From: Nitrosopumilus sp.
Lineage (GTDB): Archaea; Thermoproteota; Nitrososphaeria; Nitrososphaerales; Nitrosopumilaceae
Assembly: GCA_965197525.1 (NCBI GenBank)
Contig: OZ240211.1
Span: forward strand, 832,001 to 896,000
Direction of reading: 5' to 3'
Length of the DNA stretch: 64,000 nucleotides
Both the position numbers and the translations under genes were made by a program. Under the pieces are notes generated by a model. It was given only the letters and a program-made list of their open reading frames with translations. It was not told the origin of the DNA and did no database searches. This document shows, one piece after another, positions 60,152-63,136 of this stretch (position 1 is its first letter; every line of letters begins with the position of its first letter).

Positions 60152-60691
60152 TTGCAACTAACTGAGGAGAATCATCATATGATAACGTTGCCTGATTTGG
60201 TACAACCTAGAATGAAAGTTGTATTTGTAGGAACAAATCCCGGGACAAAATCAGCACGAATAGGGCATTATTTTGCAGGTAATAGTAATATGTTTTGGAA
60301 ATTATTATATGAATCTAATTTGACAAAAGAACGGCTTACAACGGAACAGGATAACAAGTTAATCACATATGGTCACGGCCTCACAGATGTGATAAAACGA
60401 CCTACGCGTTCTACATCAGAATTACGAAGAGATGATGGAAACGGTGCAAGAGATCGTTTGAATTCCATTATAGAGAAAAACAGACCTAGCATAGTTGCGT
60501 TTGTAGGTAAAACAGGTTTTAGATACTATCTTGACTACAAGGGTAAATCTATCAAGTATGGTATGCAAAAATTCAAGATTGCCGAATCTTCTGTATACCT
60601 CCTCCCATCTACCAGTGGCCAGAGTTTTGCAGACACTAGTTACAAAGAGAAACTATTTTGGTATAAAAAATTAAAAAAAATTATATCATGA
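60152..60691 (+). CDS. Mismatch-specific DNA glycosylase (MUG/TDG, UDG family 2), copy 1
   Basis: VFVGTNPG, GHYFAG..N.FW, GLTDVIKRPT and LPSTSG motifs. Confidence 0.9.
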   Translation: MQLTEENHHMITLPDLVQPRMKVVFVGTNPGTKSARIGHYFAGNSNMFWKLLYESNLTKERLTTEQDNKLITYGHGLTDVIKRPTRSTSELRRDDGNGARDRLNSIIEKNRPSIVAFVGKTGFRYYLDYKGKSIKYGMQKFKIAESSVYLLPSTSGQSFADTSYKEKLFWYKKLKKIIS

Positions 60692-61087
60692 ATTTTCTTG
60701 AAATTAAAAAAAGAATCCCAGTACTGACAAAATACATCACGAGAGTTTATTTGGCTACATCGTTGGTTAATTGCAATGAACAAAATACTAGAACCATCAT
60801 TAGAGTATCAATTGATTTGAAATGACAATTGTTAATGAATAGACAGTATAGGATAATCCAAAATTAAATTCAATAGATTTAGTTAGAGACGCCAACATTG
60901 TTAAAAAATACGATATTTGTGTTTCAGAGATCGCCAAACCAAGTACTAAAATAGATATTAATATTACGACTGCAAAGATGTTCACGAAAAAAAATCAGAT
61001 GCGTGTATAGATACAAATGTTTCAAACGCGGGTTTAGGAATAGTCAACCGTAGAGTTTTTTAAGGACTTGTATGCTAAAATAACAAG

Positions 61088-61567
61088 TTGAATTCACCTG
61101 AAAAACTACTAACTCTGTTTCAGGCAATAGACAAAAAACTCTCCATGAATCAGTTTGATGACAAGTTAGAAATTCAAAAAATCACTTACCTAGCTCAAGA
61201 ATATGGGATTGATTTAGAATATGAATTTGAATGGAATAAACGCGGACCATACTGCAAACAAGTATCAGAGCATGCACATATAATCATAGATTCCAGCAGG
61301 AATATCAGTATTGATAATAACTTGAAAAATGAGAAGGAAAAACTATCACAATTTGTAAAAATAATAAAACCTTACATGGATAACACTGAATGGTTAGAAA
61401 TTGCAGCTTCGCTATTATATTTACGAAAAGACAGCTATGAAAACATGGAATTGAATCAAATAATAGGATACCTTATTGAAGACTTGACGTACGGTTACAA
61501 GAATTTCAATGAGGCGTTGGTTAGAAAAGCAATTTCCGAAATGTCGAAGAAAGGATTTTTGACATAA
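61088..61567 (+). CDS. Hypothetical YwgA/Panacea(DUF4065)-like protein
   Basis: KLEIQKITYLAQ...YEFEW...GPYC and WLEIAASLLYL resemble antitoxin-like HTH domains. Confidence 0.55.
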   Translation: MNSPEKLLTLFQAIDKKLSMNQFDDKLEIQKITYLAQEYGIDLEYEFEWNKRGPYCKQVSEHAHIIIDSSRNISIDNNLKNEKEKLSQFVKIIKPYMDNTEWLEIAASLLYLRKDSYENMELNQIIGYLIEDLTYGYKNFNEALVRKAISEMSKKGFLT

Positions 61568-61603
61568 CGAAAAAATTCTTCGTTAAAATTATCGTGATAT
61601 GTT

Positions 61604-62622
61604 TTGTGGGACAATAAATGGAAAGAACTACTGAAGGATATTTCTACTAATGGTGTACTGGTATCACGAAAAGATTCAACTAGAAACACACAAGAAACTG
61701 TTTCATACAAATTTGAGATAGATGATTCTAGAAACAGATTAATCTCTGATGAATTACGTGGTATTGATATTTTTCAATGTGTTGGGCAATTTTTATGGAT
61801 TACACAAGGAAATTTCAATGTAGAAGCAATAAAGTATTACCAGCCGATCTCGGACAAATTTTCATCAGATGGGGTCAAAATGATAGGTGCATACGGTCCA
61901 AGATTATTTGGTATCCAACATCTTAATCAGATAGAGCACGTCATAGATACATTAACAGAAGATCCTGGAAAAGAAGGGCTGTAGCATCAATTTATTTGCC
62001 ACAATTTGACCAACACGAATTTGAAAATGAAGAAGTGCCGTGTACTCTGAATCTACAATATCTCATCCGTGATGACAAATTACAGGCAGTAACTTACATG
62101 AGAAGTCAAGATGCATTTAATGTGTTACCATATGATTTTTTCATATTCACAATGCTACAAGAATATCTTCTAAACAGATTAAAACCAGAACACCCAGAAT
62201 TCCAACTTGGAAGATATAATCATTATAGTGGAAGCTTCCATGTTTATCAGAAAGATCTAGATAAGATTAACAAAATCACAGACAATCAATCTTCAAAAAA
62301 CTTTACTATGAAGAAGATGCCATCAAAAAATGTAGAACTTCGTTTACGCGCATTGAATATATTTGAATCAATAGTAAGAACGGCAACATTAGCTAAAGGC
62401 AAGTATAAGATAAAATTTGATTTTGATGCAATGGTAGACGTGATGAATGACTCGTTGAAAGATGAATACTGGAGACAATTAGGATTGATATTATTATCAT
62501 ATAGTGCAATACAGACAGAAGACAGAGAAAGGCATAAACAAATATTTGATTTGTTAGATCCAGAATACAAATATTTTGTAAAACTCCATATTGACAAACA
62601 TCGTCTTACTGGATTCTATTAG
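61604..62622 (+). pseudogene. Thymidylate-synthase-superfamily protein (cytidylate hydroxymethylase/methylase-like) split by a single-base frameshift at about 61969
   Basis: ORFs 61604..61984 and 61996..62622 join as ...GAYGPRL...EDPGK-RRAVASIYLPQFD...VPCT...MRSQD...LPYD...GSFHVY if one A is added to GGAAAAGAAGG. Confidence 0.82.
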
Positions 62623-63136
62623 AATATCTTCTAAGATTTCTATACCATCCTAGTTTTTCATCATAACTTGTGTCCGCATAACTCTGTCCACTAGTAGATG
62701 GAAGAAGATAGATCCTAACATCCTTGTAATAATGTTGAAATCCATATTCTAAAGATGAATAATAGTTATTGGAATAAATCCTAAAACTCATTTTCCCAAC
62801 AAAAGCAAGAATTTTTGGAGATATCATATTCAAAGTACGGTTTAATCGTTGTATGTTTTGGGCCGTGTATTGTTTTTTAATAACAGTTATGTTACTAGTA
62901 GGCTGTTTTATAATATCAGTCAGTCCATAGCAGTAGTTTAACATATAATCATCCTCTTCTGTTTTTAACTGTCGATCTGTCAACTTTGATTCGTAAAGTA
63001 ATCTCCAAAACACGTTAGAGTGACCGGCAAAATAATGGCCTATTTTTGAAGATTTGGTACCCGGACTTGTACCTACAAATAGAATTTGTAGACCTTTTTT
63101 GATTATATCAGGAAGCGGTCGTAAAATTTCTGCCAA
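62606..63136 (-). CDS. MUG/TDG-family DNA glycosylase, copy 2 (GTSPG variant)
   Basis: LFVGTSPG, GHYFAG..N.FW, GLTDIIKQPT and LPSTSG motifs; convergent with and overlapping the TS-like gene. Confidence 0.88.
   Translation of the reverse strand: MAEILRPLPDIIKKGLQILFVGTSPGTKSSKIGHYFAGHSNVFWRLLYESKLTDRQLKTEEDDYMLNYCYGLTDIIKQPTSNITVIKKQYTAQNIQRLNRTLNMISPKILAFVGKMSFRIYSNNYYSSLEYGFQHYYKDVRIYLLPSTSGQSYADTSYDEKLGWYRNLRRYSNRIQ

Follow-up and report, generated by a model that had tools for sequence, protein, structure and literature searches.

The window analysed here is a stretch of 64,000 nucleotides (contig OZ240211.1 of assembly GCA_965197525.1, positions 832,001 to 896,000) from a Nitrosopumilus strain. 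It carries an insertion that holds a thymidylate synthase (TS)-like gene together with genes for a YwgA-like protein and two MUG-type glycosylases. The cassette is read, with about even chances of being right, as a toxin-antitoxin-type antiviral system of Nitrosopumilaceae which would poison deoxycytidine monophosphate (dCMP), excise the product and which is decaying in this genome. A gene order that recurs in 27 loci is a conserved unit and not chance. The putative enzyme at its centre has a cytidylate-type pocket, and two residues associated with folate chemistry have been lost throughout its family.

A conserved and mobile gene cassette

The locus set was composed of 27 non-redundant Nitrosopumilaceae-type loci, in which the TS-like protein is at least 40% identical to the intact homolog P0004 and less than 95% identical to the others. 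Denominators below 27 count the loci with sequence cover at that position. The YwgA-like gene is found directly upstream of the TS-like gene in 24/24 covered loci, a convergent MUG gene directly downstream in 20/22, and a second MUG gene upstream in 17/19 (12 divergent and 5 co-directional). A DNPH1/RCL-type gene is present in 12 of the 19 loci covered there. Among 151 Nitrosopumilus genomes, the identical seven contain the TS-like gene (or its remnant) and MUG. Since MUG is confined to the same 7/151 genomes as the TS-like gene, it is not a housekeeping gene here. The host genome also has ThyX for dTMP and a family-4-type UDG elsewhere. Therefore, neither the TS-like enzyme nor the MUGs serve a housekeeping role. 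A preliminary description of this DNA had proposed that the genes form a module and had named a lack of conserved co-occurrence in other genomes as its refutation; the neighbourhood search did find the co-occurrence, so that the genes are a conserved unit.

The search for relatives of the TS-like protein gave about 75, and most of these are intact with 325-377 residues. The gene occurs in 5/401 genomes drawn from the order. Viral contigs yielded no family member, and the phage genomes searched gave solely distant TS-family matches, near 30%. The two core genes bordering the insertion (59413-59646 and 63802-64260) are spaced 100-220 bp apart in 15/15 sampled Nitrosopumilus relatives, compared with 4.15 kb in the window genome. 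The insertion thus occupies a site that is empty in 15 relatives. Its GC content of 30.9%, against 39.6% for the genome, is within the lowest 0.14% of same-size genome windows, and this cassette is its whole content. The flanks of the cassette are unrelated from locus to locus. One genome (G503) holds two diverged intact copies (L119 and L122), one with D169 and the other with N169. The cassette is rare and mobile, as judged from the low-GC insertion at an empty site, the varied flanks and the two copies in one genome.

The features of the insertion are collected in Table 1. The four open reading frames of the preliminary description, with their order and strands, were all recovered at their places, and the AT-rich character of the island was borne out. 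However, a fifth gene, the RCL pseudogene, had been overlooked, and the 400 bp that separate MUG1 from the YwgA-like gene are not non-coding but hold this decayed gene. The island consists of this one cassette and not of several defence systems.

Table 1. Coordinates of the insertion and its parts within the window.
Feature	Position	Strand	Evidence
Complete insertion (4.15 kb; GC 30.9%), flanked by two core genes	59647..63801	none	GC and gene adjacency in relatives
MUG1, family-2 (MUG/TDG) DNA glycosylase, intact	60152..60691, likely start ATG 60179	+	PF03167 E 8e-18; NF007570 E 2e-30; dN/dS 0.13-0.15
DNPH1/RCL-type deoxynucleotide N-glycosidase, pseudogene	60739..61080	+	tblastn E 3e-12 with intact L005 N-glycosidase gene; DNA alignment
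YwgA-like protein, standalone, intact, DarG C-terminal-domain fold	61088..61567	+	PADLOC DarG E 1e-8; NF048014 E 7e-7; structure match
TS-like gene as a whole	61604..62622	+	
TS-like N-terminal frame, TTG start, premature stop after frameshift	61604..61984	+	PF00303 E 6e-5; 76% identity to P0004 residues 1-123
One-base deletion splitting the TS-like gene	61969..61972	+	DNA alignment; contigs
TS-like C-terminal frame, MilA-type helical tail	61970..62622	+	72% identity to P0004 residues 123-339
MUG2, MUG-fold paralog, GTSPG (Ser at Asn18), intact	62606..63136	-	PF03167 E 9e-15; alignment to 1mtl; dN/dS 0.15

Substrate pocket of the TS-like enzyme

Residue numbers follow E. coli ThyA, and the family alignment contained 66 members. 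The PC, RSQD and LPYD motifs are located in the C-terminal frame, where LPYD aligns with LPFN of ThyA. The N177D exchange seen in the preliminary description is thus real, as are the catalytic PC and RSxD motifs. This frame reads E143, C146, R166-S167-Q168-D169, V173, D177, H207 and Y209. The family keeps C146, R126', R166, S167, H207 and Y209. D177 and E143 are each found in 66/66 members, and D177, S167 and R126' in 65-66/66. The closest solved protein by profile was MilA (E 6e-44), compared with 1e-14 for ThyA and 3e-11 for T4 gp42. The structure model of the intact homolog P0004 (pLDDT 88) matched the MilA fold, including its helical tail, with a TM score of 0.81. This fold with the conserved residues places the protein in the TS superfamily, while Pfam PF00303 and the archaeal TS models matched it weakly. 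At the four positions where ThyA has Asn177, Leu143, Glu58 and Gly173, the window enzyme reads D177, E143, Q58 and V173.

It is known that D177 selects cytidylate and that an acidic residue 143 marks non-methylating enzymes (PMC13326640, PMC6400193). Residues S167 and R126' are those which switch MilA from CMP to dCMP (PMC5175136), and the Ala176/Lys133 pair behind the CMP preference of MilA is Ser/Arg here. Because of D177, S167 and R126', the substrate is most likely free dCMP rather than CMP. The earlier assignment of a cytidylate-type enzyme distinct from the housekeeping TS therefore agrees with MilA as the closest structure and with the ThyX of the host; of the (d)CMP named there, dCMP is favoured over CMP. 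An ordinary or spare TS beside uracil-repair genes, for which the weak PF00303 and archaeal TS matches could speak, is hardly credible against D177 in 66/66 members, E143, the loss of E58 and G173, the presence of ThyX, and the 144/151 congeners without a match.

Lost folate residues and likely chemistry

E58 activates methylene-tetrahydrofolate in TS, in T4 gp42 (E60) and in MilA (E68) (PMC6400193). In the archaeal family it is replaced by Q, H or T in 66/66 members, and G173 is replaced by V, L or I in 66/66. D169 is changed to N in 16/66 and retained in 50/66, including the window copy. Compared with cytidylate hydroxymethylases of the T4/MilA type, every member has Asp177 and the acidic residue 143, but every member is without E58 and G173. 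Folate-dependent hydroxymethyl or methyl chemistry, which had been suggested before, is doubtful because these two residues are lost. The same co-variation was seen in a distant set of the 145 nearest representatives at 50% identity. Of the 82 that keep E58, D169 and G173 are each present in 81, whereas the 63 without E58 have D169 in eight cases and G173 in one. The sequences without E58 form one clade with a support of 0.95 (FastTree, midpoint-rooted, subset).

Five members without E58 (P0178, P0192, P0196, P0150 and P0159) have N177, and the folate-free branch may also contain dUMP-specific enzymes. Other lineages without E58 (L047-L053, L055, L075 and L085) have different partners. A single Asn18 MUG and no YwgA-like gene were found at L048-L053, genes judged by eye as dCTP-deaminase-like and deoxynucleoside-kinase-like at L075, and an RCL-domain gene of 571 aa beside the distant branch member at L085.

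RB69 gp48 is a verified flavin-dependent 5-hydroxy-dCMP synthase, and nine of nine assayed homologs with D169N yielded 5-hydroxy-dC (PMC13326640). It reads E143, Q168, N169, V173 and D177, where the window enzyme reads E143, Q168, D169, V173 and D177. The D169N exchange is present in cassette family members that are 50-57% identical to the window enzyme. Judged from these residues, the likeliest product is 5-hydroxy-dCMP made with flavin and O2, though at somewhat below even chances. A cofactor-free reaction ranks second and is doubtful, 5-hydroxymethyl-dCMP ranks third and is rather unlikely, and 5-methyl-dCMP is very improbable.

Cluster analysis of the loci and a search with a crude P-loop pattern showed no kinase in the cassette. 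By contrast, a kinase accompanies the canonical cytidylate-type enzymes of phage-like and Streptococcus loci. This difference bears on a host-genome writer, in which 5-hydroxymethylcytosine or 5-methylcytosine would be a self mark and the MUGs would repair the deaminated base. D177 with an acidic residue 143 is the published hydroxymethylase signature (PMC13326640, PMC6400193), trace incorporation is possible without a dedicated kinase (PMC13326640), and TDG-family enzymes excise 5-hydroxymethyluracil (hmU) opposite G (PMC3488261). However, the cassette has neither a dNMP kinase nor a replacement set of the dCTPase type, E58 and G173 are lost, no conserved linked restriction nuclease was found across the cassette loci, and the TS-like gene is frequently lost. 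A writer of host DNA, as considered in the preliminary description, is thus improbable.

Several loci outside the cassette family carry related enzymes. Bacterial MilA-like enzymes with the folate residues kept (L020-L024 and L026) precede an aGPT-Pplase3/ADDT gene, with a convergent HTH-IrrE peptidase gene and a small gene; this arrangement is a parallel module of TS and glycosylase fold. In Streptococcus and Gemella (L018, L019, L027 and L028), a cytidylate-type TS occurs with thymidylate kinase, a second degenerate TS-like gene, QueA-like genes and a phosphotransferase. In phage-like freshwater contigs (L056-L070), a TS-family gene with D177 follows a nucleotide kinase and a PALP-like gene, possibly a base-modification cluster.

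A DarG-like partner encoded upstream

The YwgA-like protein stands alone with 159 aa and covers only positions 168-291 of the 329 in the DarG profile. A structure search with an ortholog model returned 7yk3 (Z 11.0, rmsd 3.1, 144 aligned residues, TM 0.6), and the next match had a Z of 4.7. The fold of the DarG C-terminal domain is thus present, but the N-terminal macrodomain and a DarT partner are not, the neighbour being the TS-like gene. As to Panacea (PF13274), there was no Pfam match, and an atlas lead (0.81) pointed to a cluster with 13% PF13274. The earlier label was YwgA/Panacea-like; the match obtained by profile and by structure is to the DarG C-terminal domain.

In the window and at L078/L079, L080, L121, L123 and L124, the YwgA-like gene has stayed intact although its TS neighbour is broken or missing, and no TS of this clade without a YwgA-like gene was found among the 24 covered loci. 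The layout is that of a type II toxin-antitoxin pair: the antitoxin-like gene lies directly upstream on the same strand, and it is the only gene found as an orphan. An antitoxin-like role fits because of the DarG C-terminal fold and the one-sided gene loss. The protein is thus a probable antitoxin or regulator, judging from its modelled fold and its gene neighbourhood, as had been thought. DarG restrains DarT through its macrodomain and through complex formation (PMC8883491). A complex predicted from L005 orthologs, with the TS dimer and the YwgA-like protein, scored 0.28 against a mark of 0.32, which counts neither for nor against binding. Longer fused forms of the YwgA-like protein were not found, which is weak evidence.

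Distant YwgA-like paralogs adjoin small unknown overlapping genes, winged helix-turn-helix (wHTH) regulators or a convergent PIN gene. The window genome itself has a second, distant YwgA-like gene at L086:5826-6774 (G000 C1 1874826-1875774), 1-4 bp from a PIN-domain gene; an operon of the two was ruled out because the PIN gene is convergent. Such paralogs (L096-L118) occur in about 30 of the 151 Nitrosopumilus genomes, and many of these genomes are larger and rich in insertion sequences. The paralogs often overlap an unannotated gene of 72-115 aa or follow a wHTH regulator, and they are possible further pairs of the toxin-antitoxin kind.

Glycosylases and candidate nucleotide-pool enzymes

MUG1 has the features of family 2, namely GTNPG with Asn18, Asn35 and a C-terminal PSxSG, and its score against NF007570 was 106 bits, under the equivalog cut-off of 144. 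In the clade of MUG2 (n=18), the Asn18 position is Ser in 16 members, Asn in one and Arg in one, so that the catalytic Asn is generally missing. Of the two glycosylases named earlier, MUG1 is therefore canonical but MUG2 is not. MUG2 is nevertheless under purifying selection, is more tightly linked to the TS-like gene than MUG1, and is convergent with it, overlapping its stop by 17 bp. The two MUGs form position-specific groups (support of the MUG2 clade 0.98), so their roles were divided long ago. E. coli MUG excises U:G, etheno bases and, weakly, 5-hydroxycytosine, and TDG excises 5-hydroxycytosine and hmU (PMC3553953).

The intact RCL-type protein of L005 is closest to human DNPH1 (E 7e-8), which is a 5-hydroxymethyl-dUMP N-hydrolase. 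At three loci (L036:3-683, L038:2703-3716 and L039:3678-4775), the cassette includes an optional MazG-like gene of 340-370 aa with EExxE/ExxD motifs and Cys-rich ends. It had no Pfam or PDB sequence match, and its identity is a lead from the motifs and from atlas features below 0.9. These optional DNPH1-like and MazG-like proteins would be nucleotide-pool cleaners.

As RCL, MazG and MUG are all sanitising families, and many loci lie among housekeeping genes, a stress or detoxification module could be considered. It would clear oxidised or otherwise damaged deoxycytidylates, or nucleoside analogues, from pool and DNA; the YwgA-like protein would regulate it, and viruses would play no part. We regard this as having a low probability: fewer than 5% of Nitrosopumilus genomes carry the cassette, which is mobile and often found in decay, and an intact synthetic active site with an antitoxin-fold partner is unexpected in plain repair.

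Decay of the window copy

The two frames of the TS-like gene jointly cover the 339 residues of P0004. Logan contigs of sample S1 (depth 23-29) cover 59943-62800 with 0 differences and 0 gaps, and a Logan contig of sample S2 covers 61661-62013, likewise free of differences and gaps. These spanning contigs rule out a homopolymer error of long reads and show that the break is real. A depth-2 contig from a relative (about 88% identity) carries an extra base at the frameshift site. In the sample of run X1, a rarer co-occurring organism has this gene order too, on a contig of 11.6 kb (record 5, window 60222-63049). A programmed frameshift is unlikely because the run is only A4 and the reading frame continues through this site in 66 homologs, though low-level slippage may occur. 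A second frameshift at the start of the gene was ruled out, since the TTG start matches P0004. The dN/dS values against the closest intact copies were 0.17-0.32 for both halves of the TS-like gene and 0.13-0.26 for the other cassette genes. The low values in both halves indicate that the break is recent.

The start of the RCL pseudogene is mutated to ACG, and the DNA alignment showed stops, frameshifts and a 3' deletion, which also took about 200 bp of the sequence preceding the YwgA-like gene. In the leading reading, the RCL gene would have decayed first and the TS-like gene later and recently. The window copy of the cassette is probably inactive.

The host genome is complete in one contig of 2.21 Mb. 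Transposases and repeat proteins are abundant near the window, which suggests a host-associated strain. In the right flank, 63235-63310 and 63605-63703 have copies elsewhere in the genome at 73-90% identity, perhaps remnants of mobile elements. A short AT-rich tandem repeat lies in the left flank (59892-59942), and the read-based contigs break there. At window positions 25000-32000, a stretch of 7 kb reaches 48-54% GC and contains no rRNA by Rfam; it may be foreign DNA or encode a large repeat or surface protein. A sigma-70 promoter scan, whose consensus is unsuited to archaea, stayed at chance level, and no RNA sample was listed among those with this sequence.

Comparison with known systems

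The cassette fits among nucleotide-modifying conflict systems but fails a defining test of each named one. Its proposed logic resembles that of DarTG or Kongming, and its chemistry would resemble that of MilA or the phage hydroxylases. The PADLOC 2023 profiles matched neither the TS nor the MUGs and gave only a partial DarG hit. The cassette was also not described in the literature searched, mainly openly readable papers on TS with glycosylase, defence, DarG, YwgA, MazG or archaea. Both results agree with the preliminary description, which knew of no named system with this layout.

MilA (PDB 5b6d, 5jp9; PMC5175136) shares the fold with its helical tail (TM 0.81/0.86, 26% identity), C146, D177 and the acidic residue 143, and like MilA with MilB, the cassette enzyme often has an adjacent N-glycosidase. 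However, it has S167/R126' instead of A176/K133 and has lost G173 and the E58 that corresponds to E68 of MilA, and it is accompanied by DNA glycosylases and an antitoxin-fold protein in place of biosynthetic genes. A natural-product start of the MilA/MilB type, as in mildiomycin and bacimethrin, would form a hydroxymethyl-(d)CMP from which an N-glycosidase frees 5-hydroxymethylcytosine. This is highly improbable in spite of MilA being the closest solved structure and the frequent adjacent N-glycosidase. The optional glycosidase has its closest relative in DNPH1, the MilA pair A176/K133 is exchanged, and no tailoring or export genes are conserved across the loci, where DNA glycosylases are conserved instead.

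The phage 5-hydroxy-dCMP synthases RB69 gp48, DLP3 gp80 and HY126 (PMC13326640; PDB 9iqu by sequence match) have E143, C146, S167, Q168, V173 and D177 in common with the cassette enzyme. Their D169N is shared by 16/66 cassette members, while the window copy and the rest of the 50/66 keep D169. The cassette enzyme is cellular, has the MilA tail and is not accompanied by a dNMP kinase or glycosyltransferases. Its modification probably harms DNA rather than protecting it, unlike that of the phage synthases. T4 gp42, the dCMP hydroxymethylase, has the same dCMP pocket and the acidic residue three before the catalytic Cys, but the cassette enzyme is without E60, G173 and the Ser of S-x-Y, which are required according to PMC6400193.

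DarTG (PDB 7yk3; PMC8883491) shares the DarG C-terminal fold and, as proposed here, a scheme that combines a modifier damaging DNA with a binder and an eraser enzyme. The cassette differs in having no macrodomain and no ADP-ribosyltransferase; its partner is a TS-fold enzyme acting at the nucleotide level, and the erasers are separate genes. A TS domain also occurs in the DefensePredictor system (TS, dNMP kinase, 5hmdU kinase, NMAD; PMC13092281), where it was validated in anti-phage defence. By its text description, to which our comparison was limited, that system has other partners, carries kinases, and has no MUG pair or DarG C-terminal domain described. In Kongming (10.1101/2024.12.20.629578), a host enzyme makes a non-canonical dNMP that phage kinases complete, a step proposed for the cassette by analogy. 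Kongming, however, deaminates a purine and signals by dITP to an NADase, whereas the cassette has no signalling effector and base excision is its proposed effector. Brig1, Dag1/Dag2 and DNPH1 are likewise glycosylases or N-hydrolases on modified bases, but they act alone on bases made by the virus; those of the cassette are tied to a nucleotide-modifying enzyme, and MUG belongs to family 2.

Proposed mechanism and its alternatives

In intact copies, the MilA-like enzyme would bind free dCMP, and attack of Cys146 on C6 would lead to a non-canonical deoxycytidylate. The DarG-C-like protein would restrain the enzyme, and the optional RCL-type and MazG-like enzymes would clear the product from the nucleotide pool. 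As the cassette seems to have no kinase of its own, the way into DNA may open to the product chiefly during infection, where the virus brings a broad dNMP kinase or sets the enzyme free. For phage synthases alone in E. coli, incorporation was at trace level, and it was far higher with the phage kinase (PMC13326640). Excision by MUG1, either of the modified base or of what its deamination leaves opposite G, would then produce abasic sites that block viral replication or cause the death of the infected cell. A non-catalytic binder or an altered enzyme may be the part of MUG2. The poison-then-excise reading of the preliminary description coincides with this leading model. Its most specific form, in which a self-made 5-hydroxycytosine nucleotide under antitoxin control is taken up by viral replication and the viral genome is destroyed by the system's own base excision, is rather unlikely when taken as a whole.

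The main rival is an eraser directed at viruses that already use C5-modified cytosine, in which nothing toxic is made. The TS-fold enzyme would remove or divert, without folate, the C5 group of viral nucleotides of the hydroxymethyl-dCMP type, RCL and MazG would destroy the modified mono- and triphosphates, and the two MUGs would excise modified pyrimidines from viral DNA. TS and C5-methyltransferases are known to allow cofactor-free chemistry at C5 by way of a Cys-C6 adduct. Every enzyme of the cassette comes from a family acting on C5-modified pyrimidines, no kinase motif was found near the TS-like gene, and the folate residues are lost. Glycosylases that attack modified phage DNA are also known, as in Brig1 and Dag1/2 (10.1101/2025.10.29.685425). 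However, this eraser leaves the invariant antitoxin-fold gene and the loss of the TS first unexplained; no modified-cytosine virus of these hosts was shown here, and viral contigs contained no family member. We consider it unlikely.

Several points weigh against the toxin-antitoxin reading. The antiviral role and the toxicity are predicted from genes alone. The counts, coming from related genomes and loci that are not independent, give a pattern and not a statistical test. Restriction-modification, Mrr, HEPN or Abi genes near at least seven other loci (L005/L077, L009, L031, L033, L039, L043 and L053) speak in favour of a defence role, but about two-thirds of the loci have no recognised defence neighbour, and none was found within the window's insertion. 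The co-variation of the folate residues tracks one branch and reflects one or few events. The D169N signature of the hydroxylases is missing from the window copy, RB69 gp48 appears to retain E58, and removal of 5-hydroxycytosine by MUG-type enzymes is only weak. The one-sided gene loss could partly come from the TS-like gene being a larger mutational target, and the neighbours of the YwgA-like paralogs suit a regulator as well as an antitoxin. The MUG genes vary in orientation or face the operon, which makes co-transcription uncertain.

Significance

To our knowledge, almost nothing is known experimentally about the antiviral defence of ammonia-oxidising archaea beyond restriction-modification and CRISPR. 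The cassette is a compact, conserved defence candidate in these organisms, and intact copies exist. If the proposed mechanism is true, nucleotide-modification immunity, represented by Kongming, DarTG and the TS-containing DefensePredictor system, would come to include a poison that the cell makes itself and follows with base excision; the DarG C-terminal fold would also gain a client other than DarT. In the most specific form of the model, with a self-made 5-hydroxycytosine nucleotide, the branch without E58 and G173 would be a wide cellular TS-fold family with non-folate chemistry. Apart from defence, a branch of MilA-like enzymes (63/145 nearest representatives) is marked out by its lost folate residues, and its chemistry is directly testable.

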